Assembly (NCBI GenBank): GCA_964525455.1
Contig: CAZGHP010000011.1
Span: 336 to 24,335 of the forward strand
Direction of reading: 5' to 3'
Source: an uncultured Candidatus Saccharibacteria bacterium
GTDB taxonomy: Bacteria > Patescibacteriota > SICC01
Length of the DNA stretch: 24,000 nt
The position numbers and the translations under genes are program-made. The stretch's first letter is position 1. The number at the start of each line of letters is the position of its first letter. Positions 1,276 through 22,375 of the stretch are shown one piece after another. A model generated the notes under the pieces. It had not been told where the DNA came from. It saw nothing but the letters and a program-made list of their open reading frames with translations, and ran no database searches.

Positions 1276-1564
1276 CGGGCTGGTAAGCGGAATCCCGCGC
1301 GGCCGGGTAATGACCTACGGCCAGATCGCGACGCTGCTCGGCCACCCGCGCCGGGCGCGCGCGGTCGGGTTCGTCGCCCACTACGGCGACCCGTCGATTC
1401 CCTGGCAGCGGGTCGTGAACCGCCACGGCCGGGTCGCGTCGGGATACCCCGGCGGGATGCCGGTCCACCGGGCGGAGCTTGCGGCCGAAGGCATCAAGCT
1501 CGGCGATGACTTCACCTGTAACCTCGACCGTTACCAGTGGTGGCCGCCGGAGTCTCAGGGATAA
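1244..1564 (+). CDS. Alkyltransferase-like (ATL) protein: MGMT/Ogt DNA-binding domain lacking the acceptor cysteine
   Basis: Ogt-like motifs GRVMTYGQIA and IPWQRVVNRHGRVASGYPGG are present. The canonical PCHRV active-site Cys is Trp (PWQRV), as in the ATL subgroup. Confidence 0.8.
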   Translation: MTKSSFRNQVNGLVSGIPRGRVMTYGQIATLLGHPRRARAVGFVAHYGDPSIPWQRVVNRHGRVASGYPGGMPVHRAELAAEGIKLGDDFTCNLDRYQWWPPESQG

Positions 1565-1788
1565 AGCGGCCGGCCCGACCGGTCGAAGACCTTGATCGCC
1601 CGGACCGGGCACTGCCGGGCGGCCTCGATGATCTTCTCCGTGTCCGCGAGCGAGGCGCCGCGCTTCACCCGCGACTTCCCGTCTTCGCCGAGCTCGAACA
1701 CGTCCGGAGCGATCGCTACGCAACTTGCCGAACCGATGCATAATCCCTTGTCGACCTCGATCCGGCCGACCGTGCGTGGATCCGTCAT
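1555..1788 (-). CDS. Small ferredoxin (single Fe-S cluster type), 77 aa
   Basis: This is the C-terminal 77 codons of track ORF 1555..2577, starting at ATG 1786-1788: MTDPRTVGRIEVDKGLCIGSASCVAIAPDVF...ARQCPVRAIKV (CxxxxxC...CP pattern). ATGA overlap with the upstream gene stop at 1785-1788. Confidence 0.8.
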   Translation of the reverse strand: MTDPRTVGRIEVDKGLCIGSASCVAIAPDVFELGEDGKSRVKRGASLADTEKIIEAARQCPVRAIKVFDRSGRPLYP

Positions 1789-3713: not shown

Positions 3714-4925
3714 TCACGCCCGTGACAAACGCGCATCGATTGCCGCCTGGTACAGGGCGCGGGTACGCGGATCGACATCCGCCAACAGCGACTGCAGGAA
3801 TCCGCTCACGATCAGCCGCTCCGCGACCGTGCGGGAAAGTCCGCGGCTCATCAGGTAGAAGAGCTGCTCTTCGTCGAGCTGACCGACCGTCGCGCCGTGG
3901 CCGGCGATGACGTCGTCGGCGTCGATCTCGAGGCCCGGGATGGCATCCACGTGGGCACGTTCGGAGAGCAGCATGGCGTGGCCGTTCTGATCGGCCGCCG
4001 AGCCGTGCGCGCCCTTGGCGATCCGGATCATTCCGCGGTAGACGGCGCGCGCGGTATCGCGACAGACGCCGCGGGCGTAGGTGTCGGAGGTCGTCCTGCC
4101 GGCGGCGTGGTTGGCGACCAGCTCCTGCTCGAAGTGCTGCGCGGCGGAACCGAAGTAAATTCCGTGGACGTCGGTCTCCGCACCGGCGGCGACGAGCGCC
4201 GACTCCACGCTGACCTGGGAGAACGACCCTCCGAACGAACCCGCCAGCCAGTCCAGCCGGGCGTTCCGGCCGACCCGGCCGCGGTAGACGGCCAGGTCGG
4301 TGGCGGTGGCATCCCAATCCGCCAGGCTGCGATAGCTGAGCTTGGCGCCGTCCTCCACATATGCCTCGATGCCGCGGACAAGCACCGCCTCCCCGCCGCC
4401 GGTACCGTGTTCAAAGAGCTCCAGTTCGGCTCCTTCCTTCACGACGATTACGGTCCGGGAAGCACTGAGGCTTCCGGATTCGGCCGGAAACGAGAGATCA
4501 ACGACCGCCTTGGTGCCGGACGGAACCACTACTACGGCCCCGTCCTTCCAGAGCGCACCGGACAGCGCGGAGAAGTAGTGTGCCGCCACGGGCAACGCGG
4601 GGCCGAGGAGGTGCCCGGCGACGTGCTCGGGCCAATCATTCACGGCCTTCCGGAGCGAGACGCCCATCGGCTTGAACTCACCCTCGTACGAGCGGACGGC
4701 GACGTGCGGGGCCAACGTACCGATCGCTTTCCCTGCGAACCGCTCCGCGATGCCGTGACGTGCCCAGTTGGTGTACTTCTTGTCCGACGGCGGTGCGAGC
4801 CGCTCCAGTGCCCGGTACGCCGCGGTCCGCTTCTTCGCGAACGCTACCGGTTCGCGCGGCGTGAACCGCGGAATCGGAATAGTCGCAGATGCCACCCCGG
4901 AGACAGTTTGTCCAAGTGCTGTCAT
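3714..4925 (-). CDS. sufD: Fe-S cluster assembly protein SufD, 403 aa
   Basis: C-terminal SufB/D signature HGATVGQLDEEQLFYLMSRGLSRTVAERLIVSGF. Lies between the sufB/NUDIX genes and sufS. Confidence 0.85.
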   Translation of the reverse strand: MTALGQTVSGVASATIPIPRFTPREPVAFAKKRTAAYRALERLAPPSDKKYTNWARHGIAERFAGKAIGTLAPHVAVRSYEGEFKPMGVSLRKAVNDWPEHVAGHLLGPALPVAAHYFSALSGALWKDGAVVVVPSGTKAVVDLSFPAESGSLSASRTVIVVKEGAELELFEHGTGGGEAVLVRGIEAYVEDGAKLSYRSLADWDATATDLAVYRGRVGRNARLDWLAGSFGGSFSQVSVESALVAAGAETDVHGIYFGSAAQHFEQELVANHAAGRTTSDTYARGVCRDTARAVYRGMIRIAKGAHGSAADQNGHAMLLSERAHVDAIPGLEIDADDVIAGHGATVGQLDEEQLFYLMSRGLSRTVAERLIVSGFLQSLLADVDPRTRALYQAAIDARLSRA

Positions 4926-5344
4926 GAGTCGGTTACTAAGCGCGGTACATCACGGAAATTATCCTGACGCCATCGCCAGATCTCATCTCTCAGAAATCGG
5001 GGTCTAATCTCCGGCATCTGGTTCCGGCTGAAGAATCGCGCTTCGACGATCGGGCCACCAATATCCGACCAATGTTCTGGCAACTTCGCGCTCGTGCGAG
5101 CTAGAAACCAGAGCGAGATGCTCCTGTCGCCCTCTTCCCTGAGGTACTCATGGGCAAAAAGAAAACGAGGATTTCTGATCTTTAGCCCGGTCTCCTCATG
5201 AATCTCGCGGAGAAGCCCTTCGACAGCCGTTTCCCTTCCGGATAAACCGCCGCCAGGCGTATACCAATACCGTTCACTGTCCCTGACCAACAATAGCTCG
5301 TCGCTCTTGTTGAAGATCAGAGCCCTCGCGGCGTAGCGACTCAC
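4922..5344 (-). CDS. NUDIX hydrolase, 140 aa
   Basis: Complete Nudix box GGLSGRETAVEGLLREIHEETGL (GX5EX7REUXEEXGU). GTG start overlaps the sufB stop (GTGA, 5341-5344) and its stop overlaps the sufD ATG (ATGA, 4922-4925). GC is visibly lower than the flanks (a hand-counted 60-nt line gave about 53%). Confidence 0.85.
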   Translation of the reverse strand: MSRYAARALIFNKSDELLLVRDSERYWYTPGGGLSGRETAVEGLLREIHEETGLKIRNPRFLFAHEYLREEGDRSISLWFLARTSAKLPEHWSDIGGPIVEARFFSRNQMPEIRPRFLRDEIWRWRQDNFRDVPRLVTDS

Positions 5345-6756
5345 CCGACACTCCCCTCCATCTCCATCGCGATCAGCCGGTTGAGTTCGACTGCGTACTC
5401 CAGCGGCAGTTCCTTCACCACCGGCTCAATGAAGCCGTTCACGATCATCCCGACCGCCTCTTCTTCGGACAACCCGCGAGACATCAGGTAAAAGAGCTGT
5501 TCCTCGCCGATCCGGCCGACCGTCGCTTCATGCGAGACCGTCACTTTCGGCTCGTCCACCTCGATGTGGGGCAGTGTGTCGGAGACCGATTCGGCATCGA
5601 GGATCAACGCGTCGCACTGCACGTTGGCGACGGCGTTCCGCGCGCCGGGAATGATCTTGAGCAGTCCCCGGTAGGCCCCGCGTCCGCCGTCTTTCGAAAT
5701 CGACTTGGCGATCACCCGCGAGCTCGTGTCCGGCGCGAGATGGAAGACCTTGGCGCCGGTGTCCTTGTCTACTTTCCCGCAGGCCAACGCCACGTTCAGG
5801 TGTTCGGCCGACGCCCCGCGCCCGAGCAGCATCGAGCACGGATACAGCATCGTTACGCCGGAACCGAGGGAGCCGCCGACCCATTCTTGCCGCGCGTCCT
5901 GCTCGACCAGCGCCCGCTTGGTGTTGAGATTATAGACGTTCTTCGACCAGTTTTGGATCGTGGTGTAACGCGACTTCGCGGCGCGTTTGGCGAAGATCTC
6001 CACCACCGCGGAATGCAGTGACGCGGTCGAGTACAGCGGCGCGGTACAACCCTCGATGTAATGCACCTCGGCGCCTTCTTCGACGATGATCAGCGTGTGC
6101 TCGAACTGCCCCTGCCCGGATGCGTTCATCCGGAAGTACGTCTGCAGCGGCATCTCGACCTTGACGCCTTTCGGGACGTACACGAACGAACCGCCGCTCC
6201 AGACCGCGCCGTGCAGCGCCGCGAACTTGTTGTCCTGGGGCGGCACGCAGCGGGTCATGAAGTAGTCCTTTACCAGGTCGGGATATTCCCGTACCGCGTG
6301 GTCCATGTCACAGAAGATCACTCCCTGTTTTTCCCACGGCCGTTTGAGCGAGCGGTAGACCGTCTCGGAATCATACATTGCCACCACGCCGGAGAGGACG
6401 TCGCGTTCCGCTTCCGGGATCTTCAGCTTGTCGAACGTCCGCTTGATGTCTTCCGGCAGATCCTCCCAGCGCTGTGCGACCCGCTCCGTCGGGCGGAGAT
6501 AGTAGGTGAGCGCCTGGAAGTCGATGCCGGAAAGATCCGGTCCCCAAGTCGGGAGCGGCTTGGACTCGAAGATCTCGAACGAGCGCAATCGGTGCTCGCG
6601 CATCCAGGCCGGCTCGTTTTTCTGGTGCGAGATGTCCTCGACCGTCCGGCGGGTGAGGCCCTGGCGCGAACGGTACGTGTGCCGTTCCCGATCCTTGTGC
6701 CGGAACCGCTCAAGCCCGCTCTGTGCCGATGCGACGCTAGCCGTCTGGTCAGCCAT
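5341..6756 (-). CDS. sufB: Fe-S cluster assembly protein SufB, 471 aa
   Basis: Full-length ORF ending in the typical SufB C-terminus HEATVGRIGEEQLFYLMSRGLSEEEAVGMIVNGFIEPVVKELPLEYAVELNRLI. Confidence 0.92.
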   Translation of the reverse strand: MADQTASVASAQSGLERFRHKDRERHTYRSRQGLTRRTVEDISHQKNEPAWMREHRLRSFEIFESKPLPTWGPDLSGIDFQALTYYLRPTERVAQRWEDLPEDIKRTFDKLKIPEAERDVLSGVVAMYDSETVYRSLKRPWEKQGVIFCDMDHAVREYPDLVKDYFMTRCVPPQDNKFAALHGAVWSGGSFVYVPKGVKVEMPLQTYFRMNASGQGQFEHTLIIVEEGAEVHYIEGCTAPLYSTASLHSAVVEIFAKRAAKSRYTTIQNWSKNVYNLNTKRALVEQDARQEWVGGSLGSGVTMLYPCSMLLGRGASAEHLNVALACGKVDKDTGAKVFHLAPDTSSRVIAKSISKDGGRGAYRGLLKIIPGARNAVANVQCDALILDAESVSDTLPHIEVDEPKVTVSHEATVGRIGEEQLFYLMSRGLSEEEAVGMIVNGFIEPVVKELPLEYAVELNRLIAMEMEGSVG

Positions 6757-7633: not shown

Positions 7634-8494
7634 TCAGAACTTCGTCTTGCTGCTTACTTTGCCGTTCGTGAACGTAATGCTGACGAAGTCGCTTCCCGCG
7701 TAGTAGTTCCAGACCGCCGTCCGCGTACCGCCGATATCGCTCTCCGTCTTGTTATCCGGATCGCTGCCGGCCACGTCACTGACCTCGTCCATGGTCATCC
7801 CGTCCTTCACGCCATCGTAAATCCGCTGGATGTCCGTCACGCTCTGCTCATCGTTGCCGCCGGGCAGCGTATCCAGGTCGTAATCATCGTTCGTAGTGTT
7901 CCGGTCGGAAGTAACGTTCAGCACCAGCAGCAGCACGCCGACGATAATCACCGCGATCTCGCCTTTGCCGAACGGCGCCTCGGTGCCACCGACCTTGTCC
8001 CAGTATTCATTGAGTTTCTTGACCGCGAGTCCCAAGAAGACGTACTGCGAAACACCCGCCGCCAAGGCGAGCAGCAGGAAAAGCAGCAACCCGCCGATGG
8101 CGCCGCCGCCGAGGAGTCCGCTTGAGGTGGCGTCATTGTCCAGCGCCGCACCGATACCGCCCAACAGCGACACGAAGGCTCCGAACCCGACGACCATCGC
8201 CGCAGCGATCAGGATATAAGGAATCGCCACGTACCAGCCGGCTGGGAATGTCTCCAGTTGCTTGCCGCTCCGCGCCTGGTTGATGTCGCGGTACAGCCAG
8301 TAGAGGATGAACGCGTTGAGGATCGGCACGATCAGTCCGACCGTCTGCAGGCCGACGTTGTCATCCGTCTTCAGTTCGGACTTGAGCCGGCCCTTCGTGA
8401 CGTAGAACCAATAGAACAAATAAAGCCCGGACGTGACAATCGTAAGTCCGAGCACTCGAAGTACGCTGCGCTTTACTGCCTTGGTATCCACCAT
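7634..8494 (-). CDS. Membrane protein with N-terminal DUF4234-like region and C-terminal DUF3862-like domain
   Basis: DUF4234-type SGLYLFYWFY and ILYWLYRDIN motifs lie in TM segments. The C-terminus, TDIQRIYDGVKDGMTMDEVSDVAG...ISITFTNGKVSSKTKF, resembles DUF3862. ATG at 8494 is preferred (GGGGG 6 nt upstream) over the track GTG at 8506. Confidence 0.7.
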   Translation of the reverse strand: MVDTKAVKRSVLRVLGLTIVTSGLYLFYWFYVTKGRLKSELKTDDNVGLQTVGLIVPILNAFILYWLYRDINQARSGKQLETFPAGWYVAIPYILIAAAMVVGFGAFVSLLGGIGAALDNDATSSGLLGGGAIGGLLLFLLLALAAGVSQYVFLGLAVKKLNEYWDKVGGTEAPFGKGEIAVIIVGVLLLVLNVTSDRNTTNDDYDLDTLPGGNDEQSVTDIQRIYDGVKDGMTMDEVSDVAGSDPDNKTESDIGGTRTAVWNYYAGSDFVSITFTNGKVSSKTKF

Positions 8495-18403: not shown

Positions 18404-19072
18404 TCACCGCGGCCGGGCGCAGTGCACCGCGAAGTTCCGGAGCAGGCGCAGGCCGTCCGGACCGGACTTTTCCGGATGGAACTGCACGCCGAACACGTTG
18501 CCGTCCTGTACGGCACTTACGAACAGCGATCCGGTCTCGCCAAGCACATGACGCGGATCCGCCGGCCGGGCCGCGAAACTATGCATATGATAAAAGCAGG
18601 AATGCTCCGGCAACCCCTCGGCCAGCGGTGACGACTGCACGAACTCGACCGGGGCCCAGCCGACGTTCGGTAACCGCGGCAACTCCAGCCGCGTGACATC
18701 GCCAGGAATCCAGCCAAGTCCCTCGGTCGGCTCTCCGGCGACCCGTCCCCGCTCGGTCGACGAATCGAACAACAATTGTTCGCCCAGGCAGATGCCGAGC
18801 ACCGGGCGGCCACTGTCGCGGAACGCCTCGAGCGGTTCGATCATTCCCGACTGCTGCAAGCGTTCCATCGCCTGCGAAAACGTCCCTACGCCGGGGAGCA
18901 CCACGCCGTCGGCGTCCGTCAGAGCCGCCGGGGTATCGGCCCGCACCACCTCCGCGCCGACCGCCCTTAGCGCTTTCTCCACGGAGTAACGATTGCTGAT
19001 GCCGATATCTACCACGGCCACGCACGGCGGGCCATCGGCAGCCCGTTCCGCGGCGGGCGGTCTCCGGGTCAT
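18404..19072 (-). CDS. hisH: Imidazole glycerol phosphate synthase glutaminase subunit HisH-like (class I GATase), 222 aa
   Basis: LPGVGTFSQAM, GICLGEQLL (nucleophile Cys), HMHSF and GVQFHPEKSG. ATGA overlap with the qor stop (19069-19072). Confidence 0.8.
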   Translation of the reverse strand: MTRRPPAAERAADGPPCVAVVDIGISNRYSVEKALRAVGAEVVRADTPAALTDADGVVLPGVGTFSQAMERLQQSGMIEPLEAFRDSGRPVLGICLGEQLLFDSSTERGRVAGEPTEGLGWIPGDVTRLELPRLPNVGWAPVEFVQSSPLAEGLPEHSCFYHMHSFAARPADPRHVLGETGSLFVSAVQDGNVFGVQFHPEKSGPDGLRLLRNFAVHCARPR

Positions 19073-20004
19073 TCCTTCACGCTGATGACGACCTTGCCGG
19101 TCGGGTGGCCTTCCTGCAGATAGGTCAGGGCCTCGCCGGCTTGCTCCAGCGGGAAGGTCTTGTCCACATGGACCGTGACCGCCCCCCGCTCGACGAGCCC
19201 GGCCAGCTTCGTCAGCCGTTCGGCGGTGGCCCGCGCTTGCACGGGGATCACCTCGACGTCGTAGTCTTCGGATCCTTCGAGCGGACCGTAGAGGACCATC
19301 GAGGCGAGCTTTCCTCCGGGGCGCAGCACCCTCAACGAGTCGCGCAGCGTCTGGCCCCCGACCGTATCGAAGACGGCGTCATAATCACGGACCTTGTCCG
19401 TGAACGACTCGTTGCGGTAGTCGATCGTCTCGTCCGCTCCGAGCCGCTTGGCGAATGCCGCATCGGCCGCACCGACGGTAGTGGCGACGTATGCGCCGAC
19501 GGATTTGGCGATTTGGATCGCGACCGAACCGATACCGCCCGCACCGCCGTGGATCAGCACTTTCTGGCCGGCGGACAAAGCGAGGTGTTCCGTAATCACC
19601 TGGTATGCACTCGCGCCGACGAGGGGCAGGGCGCCCGCCTCGGTAAACGAGATGTCCTTGGGCTTGGGCGCCAACTGGTCGGCCGAGACCGCGGTATATT
19701 CCGCGAACGAACCGGCGCCGCTGACCGCATCGGCCGCACCGTAGACCGCGTCACCGACCGCGACGCCTGACACACTCTTGCCGATCGCCGTGACCACACC
19801 GGCGACGTCCCCGCCGAGCGTGGCGGGAAACTGCAGTGGGATCGCTTCCTGCATCTGGCCGGAGCGGACCTTGCAATCGAACGGGTTCACGCCGGCCGCA
19901 TGCACCTCCACCACCACGCGGCCTTCGCCGGCCACGGGCTTTTCCGCTTCATTCAGGACATGGACCTCGGCGCCACCGTAACCGGTGATTTGTGATGCTT
20001 TCAT
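19069..20004 (-). CDS. NADPH:quinone oxidoreductase / zinc-type alcohol dehydrogenase-like (MDR superfamily), 311 aa
   Basis: VEVHAAGVNPFD and the Rossmann motif LIHGGAGGIGSVAIQIAK, with the typical Qor-like length. SD GAAGGAGA upstream. Confidence 0.85.
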   Translation of the reverse strand: MKASQITGYGGAEVHVLNEAEKPVAGEGRVVVEVHAAGVNPFDCKVRSGQMQEAIPLQFPATLGGDVAGVVTAIGKSVSGVAVGDAVYGAADAVSGAGSFAEYTAVSADQLAPKPKDISFTEAGALPLVGASAYQVITEHLALSAGQKVLIHGGAGGIGSVAIQIAKSVGAYVATTVGAADAAFAKRLGADETIDYRNESFTDKVRDYDAVFDTVGGQTLRDSLRVLRPGGKLASMVLYGPLEGSEDYDVEVIPVQARATAERLTKLAGLVERGAVTVHVDKTFPLEQAGEALTYLQEGHPTGKVVISVKE

Positions 20005-20099
20005 CGTCTCCTTCTCGAGGTCATGCTACATCAGATGCCGGGTGTGCCCGCGCGCATGAACGCTCCCGCCCCAAACCCACCAGGCTCTGGTTTCTCTTT

Positions 20100-20106
20100 C
20101 TTACTC
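20100..20106 (+). repeat. Left copy of the 7-bp direct repeat CTTACTC
   Basis: Identical heptamer at 21315-21321. This copy is the 5' strand of hammerhead stem III plus the cleavage-site C. Confidence 0.5.
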
Positions 20107-20152
20107 CATGAATGCGCGTTTATGCTGATGAGTCCGAAAGGACGAAAGTGAG
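20100..20152 (+). ncRNA. Hammerhead self-cleaving ribozyme motif, type III topology
   Basis: CUUACUC^CAUGAA-UGCGCG-UUUAUG-CUGAUGA-GUCC-GAAA-GGAC-GAA-AGUGAG. The full invariant core is present (CUGAUGA 20125-20131; GAA 20144-20146; A15.1-U16.1 = 20147/20105; C17 = 20106; G10.1-C11.1 = 20132/20143), enclosed by three correctly placed helices. Confidence 0.85.
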
Positions 20153-20195
20153 CTTGGGATAAAGACGATTTTAGCGGCGACGCTTCCATGACAAA

Positions 20196-20216
20196 AAGAG
20201 GCCGTATAAGCCTCTT
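20196..20216 (-). terminator. Intrinsic-terminator-like hairpin oriented on the minus strand
   Basis: AAGAGGC-CGTATAA-GCCTCTT (7-bp stem). On the minus strand the stem runs into TTTTTG (plus-strand A-run 20193-20197). It would block minus-strand transcription from the islet toward qor. Confidence 0.45.
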
Positions 20217-20316
20217 GCGAAACGTCCATGCCGGGCTCCCCAAAGCGTACTATGTTCGAACCGAAATTGGCGATCCTTTGCAGGTTTCTATATAAAAAAC
20301 ATGTAAGGTATGTCCT

Positions 20317-20628
20317 ATGGCTACAAAAGAAATTTCTGGCGGCACGGTACACAAACTGCCAGCCGATCTACGCAAGGCGTTGATTGCTGATCCAAAGGTG
20401 CTCGCTCTATGGGAAGACATTACTCCGCTCGCGCGTAATGAGTTTATCTGCTGGGTTGAGAATGCCAAACAGATTGAAACCAGGAATCGTCGCATCAAAA
20501 GAACGTGCGAAGAACTTCTCGAAGGAAAACGCCGGCCCTGCTGTTGGATTGGTTGCATCCACCGCACGGACAAGCCGCTAAGCCCCTCGGTGCGACGGGT
20601 GCTCGGTAAACAAGCTAAAAAGTCATAG
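20317..20628 (+). CDS. YdeI/OmpD-associated family protein, 103 aa
   Basis: LPADLRKALIADPKVLALWEDITPLARNEFICWVENAKQIETRNRRIKRTCEELLEGKRRPCCW matches the YdeI-type pattern. Low GC. AAGG lies 9 nt upstream of the ATG. Confidence 0.75.
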   Translation: MATKEISGGTVHKLPADLRKALIADPKVLALWEDITPLARNEFICWVENAKQIETRNRRIKRTCEELLEGKRRPCCWIGCIHRTDKPLSPSVRRVLGKQAKKS

Positions 20629-20643
20629 AAGCAAAAGGGTGTC

Positions 20644-21012
20644 ATGGCAAAACATCGGATCTACACAACGAGTGTCGCAAGGGTCTATCCATACTATGTT
20701 GCTAAGGCAGAGAAAAAGAGTCGCACAAAAACGGAAGTCGACGAAATTATTCGTTGGCTGACAGGATATAACCAGAAAGAGCTGGAAGCACAACTAGAAG
20801 AACAGACTGACTTTGAGACTTTCTTTGCAAAAGCTCCTCAGCTGAATCCGTCGCGAGCTTTGATTACAGGCGTAGTTTGCGGTGTCCGAGTGGAAGATAT
20901 CGAAGAACCGACCATGCAGGAAATTCGCTACCTGGATAAACTGATCGATGAGTTAGCGAAGGGTAAGACGATGGAGAAGATTTTGCGGAAGGAACCTAGA
21001 GGTGGAGCTTAG
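20644..21012 (+). CDS. DUF2200 domain protein, 122 aa
   Basis: [42 protein letters not shown]...[22 protein letters not shown] is the characteristic DUF2200 sequence pattern. SD AAGGG upstream. Confidence 0.8.
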
Positions 21013-21045
21013 TCCAGCTTCAGTAACGAAAATATAACGTTGCCC

Positions 21046-21083
21046 CAACGGTTAGCAACGTCATTGCAGCTGCTAACCCGTTG
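21046..21083. terminator. Hairpin between convergent genes (bidirectional terminator candidate)
   Basis: CAACGGTTAGCA (21046-21057) pairs with TGCTAACCCGTTG (21071-21083) with one bulged C and a 13-nt loop. Lies between the DUF2200 stop and the 62-aa gene stop. Confidence 0.45.
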
Positions 21084-21093
21084 CTTCCCTAGA

Positions 21094-21282
21094 CTAAGAT
21101 TTGTCGTTTAGGTACTTACCGGCAACACTGAGGGCAAACGAGGGCAGGATAACAAAAACAGTGGCAAACAGGAGCTTTGAAAGTATGTCATCATCCTTCG
21201 GCTGCGTCAGAACAACTAAAATTCCCAAAACGCCAAATACAACTGAAGCGTAGGTGAATATTCGCGTCGCTATCTTTTGCAT
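21094..21282 (-). CDS. Small two-TM membrane protein, 62 aa
   Basis: Two hydrophobic helices (YASVVFGVLGILVVL, LLFATVFVILPSFALSVAG). SD AGAGAGG lies 7 nt upstream of the ATG. Low GC. Confidence 0.55.
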   Translation of the reverse strand: MQKIATRIFTYASVVFGVLGILVVLTQPKDDDILSKLLFATVFVILPSFALSVAGKYLNDKS

Positions 21283-21314
21283 GATTGAACCTCTCTAGAC
21301 ATTAGTTGAAAGTA

Positions 21315-21321
21315 CTTACTC
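21315..21321 (+). repeat. Right copy of the 7-bp direct repeat CTTACTC
   Basis: Identical to 20100-20106. Separated by 1 nt from the encoded CCA end of tRNA-Asn. Confidence 0.5.
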
Positions 21322-21322
21322 T

Positions 21323-21397
21323 TGGCTCCGGAGGTCGGATTCGAACCGACGACCTTCGCGTTAACAGCGCGCTGCTCTACCGCTGAGCTACTCCGGA
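21323..21397 (-). tRNA. tRNA-Asn (anticodon GTT), 75 nt, with encoded CCA
   Basis: Minus strand reads TCCGGAG-TA-GCTC-AGCGGTA-GAGC-A-GCGCG-CTGTTAA-CGCGA-AGGTC-GTCGG-TTCGAAT-CCGAC-CTCCGGA-G-CCA. This gives a full cloverleaf, with anticodon loop CT-GTT-AA. Confidence 0.92.
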
Positions 21398-21421
21398 AAG
21401 TGCATGAGGCACTCTTAAAAG

Positions 21422-21427
21422 TATAAT
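21422..21427 (+). promoter_or_regulatory. Consensus -10 hexamer TATAAT, 6 nt upstream of the GTG start at 21434
   Basis: Reads aaaagTATAATggccatGTG. The overlapping minus-strand TATACT (21425-21420) could serve the divergent tRNA. Confidence 0.4.
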
Positions 21428-21433
21428 GGCCAT

Positions 21434-22375
21434 GTGCAGGAAACACACACCGGCCAAGACCACCACCGGCCGTCCGGGGCCGCCCGGAAGCAGCCCGGCC
21501 TGAAGCGCCAGTACTTCGTGGTAGCGCTGGTGGCGATCGGCATCTCGCTCCTGCTCTCGCCGCCGCGGCAGCCGGTGCACCGGACGGAGACCGCCCAGGC
21601 GCTAGCCGGTCTCCCGGAAGTCCGGTCGCAGGAAGCGCTGACGATCCGGATCGCCCAGACCCTCGGCGAAGGACACATCGGCATCGCCGCCAAGGACCTC
21701 CGGACCGGCGAAACGTTCGCGCTCGGCGCGGACGAGACGTTCGACGCCGCTTCCACCATGAAGCTCGTGATCGTGGGGTTCATGTACCACGAGGCCTCGA
21801 ACAACCGCTTCGACCTCGACGAAGTCCTCACGCTGTCGCCGGGCGAGATCCAGCCGTACGGCACCGGCACGATCCATCTGCAGCCGGCGCCGCACCGTTA
21901 CAGCTGGCGGGAGCTCGCGCGGCTGACGATGGAGAAGTCGGACAACACGGCCGCCTATGTGCTGGCTGCCCGGCTCGACAAGGCCAAGCTCCAGCGGTTC
22001 GCGGACGAGCAGGGACTGGCCGGCACTTCGATCGAAAGAAACGTCACGACCCCGCGTGACATGCTGCACTACCTGGAGCGGCTCTACGCCGGGCGGGTCG
22101 CCGACGAAGTCCTGACGGAAGAGCTCCTCGGTATCCTCGATGACAGCGACTTCGAGGAGCGCATCCCCGGACAGCTCCCCGAAGAGACGACCGTGTATCA
22201 CAAGACCGGCGACGCCTTCAACGGCGGCCAGCACGACGCCGGCATCGTCGTCTACGAAGGCCATCCGTACGTCGTGGCGATCTTCACCGAGCGCGTCACC
22301 GGCGACATCGGCCTCACCCGCACCAAGATCGCCGAGGCTTCGCGCGACATCTTCGCGTACTACTTGAACCGGTAG
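21434..22375 (+). CDS. Class A beta-lactamase-fold serine hydrolase with N-terminal membrane anchor, 313 aa
   Basis: SxxK (STMK), SDN (EKSDNTA) and KTG (YHKTGDA) motifs occur in the correct order. An N-terminal basic segment is followed by a TM helix. Confidence 0.8.
   Translation: MQETHTGQDHHRPSGAARKQPGLKRQYFVVALVAIGISLLLSPPRQPVHRTETAQALAGLPEVRSQEALTIRIAQTLGEGHIGIAAKDLRTGETFALGADETFDAASTMKLVIVGFMYHEASNNRFDLDEVLTLSPGEIQPYGTGTIHLQPAPHRYSWRELARLTMEKSDNTAAYVLAARLDKAKLQRFADEQGLAGTSIERNVTTPRDMLHYLERLYAGRVADEVLTEELLGILDDSDFEERIPGQLPEETTVYHKTGDAFNGGQHDAGIVVYEGHPYVVAIFTERVTGDIGLTRTKIAEASRDIFAYYLNR

Follow-up and report, generated by a model that had tools for sequence, protein, structure and literature searches.

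We analysed a window of 24,000 nucleotides (nt), the whole stretch of DNA considered here (contig CAZGHP010000011.1 of assembly GCA_964525455.1, from an uncultured Candidatus Saccharibacteria bacterium), with a focus on a GC-poor islet at positions 20086–21322 that holds three small genes beside a gene for tRNA-Asn. The first islet gene encodes a 103-amino-acid (aa) OmdA/YdeI protein (YdeI; 20317–20628, plus strand; Pfam PF13376, E 2e-19), the second a 122-aa DUF2200 protein (20644–21012, plus strand; Pfam PF09966, E 6e-53) and the third, tm62, a 62-aa membrane protein called as an open reading frame (ORF) on the minus strand (21094–21282) with no Pfam match. The tRNA-Asn(GTT) gene, with an encoded CCA end (21323–21397, minus strand), was found by tRNA calling and was the only match at Rfam gathering level. 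A hairpin followed by a T run, terminator-like on the minus strand, was detected by a terminator scan between a hammerhead ribozyme motif and YdeI (20196–20216) and also formed in the minimum-energy fold of 20153–20250. Hairpins between the convergent DUF2200 and tm62 genes make up an unstranded terminator region (21038–21083), within which the hairpin at 21046–21083 had a folding z of −2.3. An earlier note on this DNA had listed the same three genes (a YdeI-like protein, a DUF2200 protein and a 62-aa protein with two transmembrane segments) and the same two hairpins, all of which were recovered by the Pfam and ORF calls and by folding.

The islet had a GC content of 0.469 (46.9%), compared to a mean of 0.642 (64.2%; sd 0.020, minimum 0.595) for same-size stretches elsewhere in the window, which corresponds to z = −8.7, and the tetranucleotide distance between the islet and the rest of the window gave z = 14. 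GC content at third codon positions (GC3) of the three islet genes was 0.46–0.53, vs 0.79–0.90 in well-supported host genes; the dip is therefore not caused by amino-acid content. The right edge of the dip coincided with the CCA end of the tRNA-Asn gene, and the hammerhead motif sits at its left edge. The computed profile thus confirmed the low-GC block that the earlier note had estimated from hand counts, and the deviation, on which the note had made its claim depend, was strong. Composition shifted abruptly at both ends, as would also be seen if a low-GC fragment of another organism had been joined into a high-GC contig during assembly. However, an independently made Logan assembly of SRR6868922 yielded a 9-kb contig that was 100% identical to the window across both junctions, and the same arrangement was present in two further assemblies from other samples (L090 and L196, described below). 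Because the independent contig was identical across both junctions, we consider chimerism excluded, with a negligible residual probability.

The host is a high-GC Patescibacterium. Its qor gene, which encodes a quinone-oxidoreductase-like dehydrogenase to the left of the islet, had its best match in a Saccharibacteria metagenome-assembled genome (MAG) of 63% GC, at 72% identity. Representative genomes were searched with qor for an empty site, that is, qor next to tRNA-Asn; only qor itself was common to the best match, with no synteny. The relatives that proved informative were found through homologues of YdeI and tm62. One of these, L196 (GCA_025449535.1, an 810-kb contig), carries dnaG-sigma70-..-bla-tRNA-Asn-tm62-DUF2200-YdeI in the order and orientation seen in the window, with homologues of the window's ABC transporter and Cob adenosyltransferase farther along; the terminator stretch 21038–21083 is absent from it. 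The other, L090 (GCA_040902515.1), carries a symporter followed at some distance by YdeI-DUF2200, then what looks like a diversity-generating retroelement, and then tRNA-Asn-bla-S9 hydrolase-sigma70. Compared to the window at the nucleotide level, the L090 flanks were 78.5% and the YdeI-DUF2200 pair 77% identical, and an 82-nt alignment containing the tRNA-Asn gene, a conserved anchor, was 97.6% identical.

The islet genes thus occupy a fixed position on the backbone of all three genomes, and the GC dip was found at the same place in L090 (0.47–0.58) and in L196 (0.49–0.56), where islet-gene GC3 was 0.69–0.72 and 0.61–0.68, respectively, vs 0.80–0.91 for host genes. The earlier note had suggested a discrete, newly inserted element of a type that it could not name, and had added that the same genes in synteny and at normal host GC in related genomes would instead indicate an ancient resident locus. 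The first suggestion is contradicted by L090 and L196, which have these genes at the corresponding place in the backbone. As to the second, the genes and the synteny were found in the relatives but normal host GC was not, since the dip is present in all three genomes. An empty site was not found among the three genomes of the clade that were available (the window, L090 and L196), and both relatives carry the genes.

Parts of the same arrangement were also found at a greater distance. YdeI converges on tRNA-Asn within 0.3–3.4 kb in five further loci (L089, L121, L123, L124 and L149) that have no other synteny with the window. In the low-GC loci L193, L194, L121 and L149, GC3 of tm62 and YdeI was within or near the range of the neighbouring genes, and across hosts with GC3 from 0.31 to 0.90, YdeI GC3 was 0.40–0.72. 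The small-protein family to which tm62 belongs has about 2000 homologues, and its named sources were Saccharimonadales, Saccharibacteria and Patescibacteria, together with one MAG labelled Methylomirabilota. The synteny in L090 and L196, the pairing of YdeI with tRNA-Asn, the sources of tm62 and the normal composition in low-GC genomes argue that the block is native to the group and resident at this site. Overall, we conclude that the islet is probably a long-resident three-gene neighbourhood of a high-GC Saccharimonadia-like Patescibacterium rather than an inserted element.

The divergence of the islet genes from L196 was mosaic. Identity at 4-fold degenerate sites between the window and L196 was 28/39 for DUF2200, 14/28 for tm62 and 5/28 for YdeI, compared to 203/374 for the pooled backbone (Fisher tests: DUF2200 vs YdeI, p = 1.7e-5; YdeI vs backbone, p = 2.6e-4), and a breakpoint in the divergence lies near 20507. 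Incongruent divergence of this kind is a mark of flexible loci, and here it was found within the islet itself. YdeI homologues 82–88% identical to the window protein were recovered; aa identity was 88% to L088 and L089 and 82% to L090, vs 65% to L196. For tm62, aa identity was 87–90% to low-GC Saccharimonadales alleles, vs 82% to L196. The window alleles of both genes are therefore closer to those of lower-GC genomes than to those of syntenic relatives. In addition, the window's islet copies still had a GC3 of about 0.5 although synonymous sites of the backbone were near saturation, which does not fit one ancient acquisition with later amelioration.

The islet genes belong to small, very conserved families that are common to lineages of widely different genomic GC. 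We propose that homologous recombination with DNA apparently derived from lower-GC relatives has repeatedly exchanged their alleles, each time over tracts shorter than the islet, with the near-invariant tRNA gene serving as the right-hand homology arm. Such exchange would keep the block GC-poor, would need no integrase and would leave no attachment (att) sites. Saccharibacteria are naturally competent and incorporate DNA through homologous recombination (PMC10633639), and in Patescibacteria most detected gene transfers are within the phylum (PMC12455944). Repeated piecemeal replacement of alleles at a fixed locus is the best-supported reading of the data, and we regard it as probably correct. 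Several points weigh against it. No recombination event was seen directly and no donor was identified; the 4-fold comparisons draw on short genes, with 28–42 such sites each for YdeI, DUF2200 and tm62; on the left, where the flank is different in each of the three genomes, a conserved homology arm was looked for and not found; and, for L090 and L196 taken alone, one early acquisition with later amelioration is a fairly good fit.

This last point leads to the principal competing explanation, according to which the ancestor of the high-GC clade acquired one island beside tRNA-Asn from a low-GC donor, the integrase was later lost, and the island is still ameliorating. A dip in all three syntenic genomes and the intermediate GC3 of the L090 and L196 copies (0.61–0.72) are what such a history would produce, as is the similarity between the window and L090 copies, which match at about backbone level (4-fold identity of 0.62 and 0.50 vs 0.51–0.62); moreover, a 17-nt direct repeat (15/17) flanks YdeI-DUF2200 in L090, and DUF2200 is found on many plasmids. 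However, the window copies are un-ameliorated (GC3 0.46–0.53) in spite of the near-saturated synonymous sites around them, adjacent genes differ sharply in their divergence from L196, there is no tRNA-derived repeat, and low-GC relatives have both tm62 and the YdeI-tRNA-Asn pairing as native features of normal composition. We therefore consider a single ancient island a possible but distinctly less probable account than allele replacement.

Compared to known systems, the islet resembles tRNA-associated islands and islets in its composition, which is unlike that of the host (GC, tetranucleotides, and a GC3 of about 0.5 vs 0.8–0.9), in its boundary at a tRNA 3' end, in its small accessory cargo and in the variable content of the site (the L090 retroelement), but it differs from them in that it lacks an integrase and a directly repeated tRNA end, that an empty site was not found, and that its cargo is syntenic in three diverged genomes. 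None of the 29 ORFs in the 24-kb window had a Pfam match to an integrase or transposase, in agreement with the earlier note, which had remarked on the absence of a recombinase. The note had also pointed to the tRNA 3' end as a classic integration site; this was not upheld, as no att-like repeat was present and no second copy of the tRNA 3' end occurred in the window with up to 3 mismatches allowed. With recombination hot spots and flexible islands the islet shares a fixed position, allelic mosaicism, divergence unlike that of its flanks, the lack of a dedicated recombinase, and competent hosts (PMC10633639). It differs from recombination-maintained islands in being only 1.2 kb long and in that its alleles appear to come from relatives of much lower GC, and recombination is here deduced from the divergence pattern. 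On balance, the islet seems to be a known kind of thing, namely a flexible locus beside a tRNA gene that is maintained by recombination. The case is a caution, since a GC dip beside a tRNA gene does not by itself prove that an insertion was recent. In place of what seemed a new class of mobile element, the analysis offers a more ordinary and testable picture, in which a small fixed locus of high-GC Patescibacteria is GC-poor apparently through a gene pool held in common with lower-GC relatives.

At the left edge of the islet, the earlier note had placed a hammerhead motif, and a type III hammerhead was confirmed there (20100–20152, plus strand) by direct reading, by a covariance model and by a second copy in another contig. 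Helix III is formed by C20100–C20104 with G20148–G20152 (CUUAC/GUGAG) and by the U20105-A20147 pair (the A15.1-U16.1 pair), helix I by 20107–20112 with 20119–20124 (CAUGAA-UGCGCG-UUUAUG, 6 bp with the loop UGCGCG), and helix II by 20132–20143 (GUCC-GAAA-GGAC, 4 bp). The core comprises CUGAUGA at 20125–20131 (C3-U4-G5-A6-U7-G8-A9) and GAA at 20144–20146 (G12-A13-A14). All nucleotides required of the conserved type III core were present, including H17 (C20106), and cleavage is predicted 3' of this C17. The architecture was also that of type III, with three helices of which I and II are closed by loops and III is open, and every pair was standard (14/14). The Rfam Hammerhead_3 model gave only a local match to model positions 9–47 at 20.2 bits, which is below its gathering score of 48.5. 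A purpose-built covariance model (R1), made from nine phage and satellite hammerheads with the window left out, aligned end to end to 20101–20151 with 58.7 bits (E 3.6e-18) and zero non-standard pairs, a score in which the 23-nt core is identical by construction and only helices I and III are independent evidence. The 23-nt core with helix II occurred exactly in 17 IMG/VR contigs, most of which carry type III hammerheads that share the helix I geometry of the window copy. In an alignment of the 18-sequence family, 100% of cells were paired and 11 of the 14 pairs varied on both sides.

The second copy, a cellular one that we regard as the decisive evidence, lies on L111 (JGI metagenome contig Ga0164242_10189230) at 1530–1480 on the minus strand, 68 nt from a YdeI homologue, and scored 58.1 bits with the R1 model and 41.9 bits over the full length of the Rfam model (E 2.6e-7). 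Relative to the window, it had three compensatory double changes in helix I and a helix III that was wholly different yet fully paired, and a comparison of the flanks of the two hammerheads showed no similarity. Compared to the window copy, it is on the reverse strand and at the other flank of YdeI, whose 3' end it faces, and a tm62 homologue adjoins it as well. Because L111 keeps the fold through double changes while the flanks are unrelated, the window motif is judged to be a genuine type III hammerhead that has been kept by selection; only the ribozyme itself, and not its surrounding context, is conserved between the two loci. Overall, hammerheads were found in 2 of roughly 100 loci carrying YdeI and/or tm62 (the window and L111), and there was none in L090 or L196. 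As to whether the motif travels with these genes, as the note had asked, it recurs near YdeI in L111 and is absent from the syntenic relatives. Its standing as the boundary of a unit fell for the same reasons, namely its absence from L090 and L196 and its changed side and strand relative to YdeI in L111. A search of 19500–21800 found no second ribozyme at the right boundary and no other self-cleaving class.

Type III hammerheads (RF00008) are known from intergenic regions of phages and prophages (PMC3088659), and the window copy shares their full core, the three helices with helix III open and the CUC cleavage triplet. The phage hammerheads of the 17 IMG/VR contigs are similar to it in helix I (6 bp with a 6-nt UGNGNG-like loop) and in helix II (GUCC-GAAA-GGAC), and this subtype often occurs several times per contig, 23–29 nt upstream of small ORFs. 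Unlike the phage copies, the window hammerhead occurs once, on a cellular, Patescibacteria-like chromosome and with neither a prophage nor an integrase in its vicinity, its helix III has 5–6 bp (vs 3–4 bp), the distance to the next start codon is 164 nt (vs about 25 nt), its Rfam score lies under the gathering threshold, and its cleavage is predicted from sequence. It thus adds to a known family a new member from an unusual group of hosts; a literature search, which was not exhaustive, found no paper linking hammerheads with Patescibacteria. A well-supported type III hammerhead of the subtype seen in phages, backed by another copy that covaries with it, is now placed in a Patescibacteria-like chromosome. 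In four of the phage contigs (L105 870–3144, L107 657–2538, L095 12916–13613 and L101 579–1668), two or three hammerheads of the window subtype lie within 1–2.5 kb, each just upstream of an ORF of 63–94 aa. A T-arm-like hairpin seen by eye beside phage hammerheads was not called as a tRNA by ARAGORN, and tRNAs at these sites were dropped from consideration. Immediately upstream of the L111 hammerhead, at 1533–1593 (minus strand), there is a very stable long hairpin (−46.6 kcal/mol, z = −6.4), the window counterpart of which is only a weak 5-bp hairpin (20079–20091, z = −0.24).

The spacer between qor and YdeI is 312 nt long in the window, vs about 145 nt in L090 and L196. The stretch 20005–20250 has no counterpart in either relative, and the hammerhead lies within it, co-oriented with YdeI-DUF2200. 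The portion of the islet common to L090 starts at 20251, and the upstream region of YdeI (20251–20316, plus strand; 82% identity to L090) presumably holds its promoter and leader. The hammerhead may cut plus-strand transcripts that enter YdeI-DUF2200 from the left, after C20106, which would uncouple the operon RNA from upstream sequence and leave a 5'-OH and a structured leader. The hairpin at 20196–20216 has no T run on the plus strand, so a plus-strand transcript would read on into YdeI. Bacterial hammerheads flank single genes or short blocks of variable identity (Perreault et al. 2011, PMC3088659), and by analogy with these and with the phage copies, the likeliest role that can tentatively be suggested is co-transcriptional cleavage separating the operon RNA from upstream RNA. 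Three observations speak against this role: a promoter scan detected no plus-strand promoter upstream of the hammerhead, YdeI is preceded by a conserved region of its own that lies after the ribozyme, and, because the L111 copy is convergent with YdeI, a role as 5' leader of YdeI is not general. A 35-codon ORF after the hammerhead (20188–20295) is not conserved in L111.

The missing promoter would also be expected if the motif had no function today, whether as a phage-DNA relic that is now inert or as a chance match. The Rfam score far under the gathering threshold and the absence of the motif from both syntenic genomes (L090 and L196) point the same way, as does the minimum-energy fold of the region, which was not the hammerhead fold and had an uninformative folding z of −0.08. 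Uninformative minimum-energy folding is, however, expected for hammerhead motifs. Against a relic, the core nucleotides are all intact with 14/14 pairs standard, and L111 keeps both helices (by the three double changes in helix I and a new helix III) while its flanks have no similarity to those of the window; helices kept where the flanks have lost all similarity indicate selection on the fold. We thus regard a relic or chance match as unlikely.

The foreign composition, the adjacent tRNA gene, the lack of a recombinase and a real hammerhead at the edge could together be taken for a mobile mini-element of a new type, free of a recombinase, bounded by ribozyme and tRNA and inserted at this site, and the recurrence of a hammerhead near YdeI and tm62 homologues in L111 would agree with that. 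So would a sequence motif ending in ACTATGTTCGAAC, which is found on both sides of the YdeI-DUF2200 pair in L090. However, L090 and L196 have these genes at the corresponding point of the backbone and lack a hammerhead, a search for an empty site found none, the islet ends are not repeated in the window, and the L111 hammerhead differs in its strand and in its side of YdeI and has unrelated flanks. The element was also absent from viral contigs, which yielded no YdeI or tm62, and there was no YdeI in phage records. Insertion of a mini-element of this kind is, in our view, highly improbable.

In the window, the motif spans 27 nt on the plus strand (20235–20261), of which 20249–20261 is the part ending in ACTATGTTCGAAC, and ACTATGTTCGAAC contains the palindrome GTTCGAAC. 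A copy between DUF2200 and tm62 in L196 (5189–5215) was 26/27 identical to it, and in L090 it occurs at 5932–5948 and 6684–6702 as the 17-nt direct repeat (15/17) that flanks the pair. Relative to the pair, the motif is thus on the left in the window, on the right in L196 and at both ends in L090; across 1.9 Mb of further loci, the only other matches were two chance ones with 1 mismatch. As a lead only, it may be regarded as a scar left by duplication or by the recombination of cassettes. One-gene and two-gene units with short flanking repeats and no recombinase of their own are known from the Xer-dependent dif modules of Acinetobacter plasmids (pdif modules) and from integron cassettes. The ACTATGTTCGAAC motif has TATGTT in common with the XerD arm of dif. 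In contrast to pdif and integron sites, it has no two-arm dyad, is present on both sides only in L090, and is accompanied by no array or integrase. Because XerC-arm symmetry is absent, a dif-like reading of the 27-nt motif was kept as a lead only.

A further possibility is that YdeI-DUF2200 would be a discrete cassette that moves without a recombinase of its own, through host enzymes acting on the motif ending in ACTATGTTCGAAC, with the hammerhead as part of the machinery (for example, by defining an RNA intermediate). The L090 locus also holds the reverse transcriptase of a diversity-generating retroelement. A second ribozyme, a circular form or multiple insertion sites were not in evidence, and we consider the cassette very unlikely.

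The two paired genes are of interest apart from their location. DUF2200 had 84–89% aa identity to homologues from Bacillota and metagenomes, is carried on 94 plasmids, and was 74–89% identical among Bacillota, rhizobial megaplasmids (64 Sinorhizobium records), an Enterococcus plasmid and a plasmid of the haloarchaeon Haladaptatus. Such conservation across domains is unusually high for a protein without known function. The sole match in PDB and NCBIfam function searches was an uncharacterised protein structure (3c9p, E 6e-28), and the single paper found to mention DUF2200 gave no clue to its function. YdeI and DUF2200 were adjacent, in varying order, in 4 of the 80 metagenome YdeI loci, with DUF2200 about 2 kb off in a fifth, and are also adjacent in the window, in L090 and in the L195–L197 loci. 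This recurrent adjacency suggests a functional link. The loci of the closest DUF2200 homologues (L083–L087) had no YdeI, no tRNA gene and no hammerhead. Recurrent pairing, together with extreme conservation across phyla and on plasmids, makes the two genes candidates for functional study.

Short YdeI/OmdA proteins were 60–88% identical among genomes of GC 0.29 to 0.68, and when aligned all shared a C-terminal motif RPCCWxGCxHR, usually RRPCCWxGCxHR, the form found in the window copy. This motif is a possible metal- or thiol-related site. The YdeI ORF (L001 5404–5715) was left uncalled by the gene caller of the public Logan contig despite its strong Pfam match, and for this reason the window YdeI is missing under its own sequence from the protein collection.

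Other features of the three loci and the window were also noted. Left of YdeI, the sequence differs between the window (18404–20004), L090 (1525–5856) and L196 (6048–7460). In the window, this region encodes a class-I glutamine amidotransferase and the quinone-oxidoreductase-like dehydrogenase, both at host GC; beyond its closest relative in the Saccharibacteria MAG, the dehydrogenase was 51–56% identical to proteins of Methanoperedens archaea and other Patescibacteria. The stretch between DUF2200 and tRNA-Asn in L090 (6767–8247) encodes a reverse transcriptase (PF00078) and a bAvd accessory protein, hence its likeness to a diversity-generating retroelement; it is GC-poor (0.51–0.55) and has a long hairpin at 7804–7909. 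Elsewhere in the window, a NUDIX gene (4922–5344) was a second, milder composition outlier, with a GC content of 0.544 and a GC3 of 0.61 vs ~0.8 in its neighbours.

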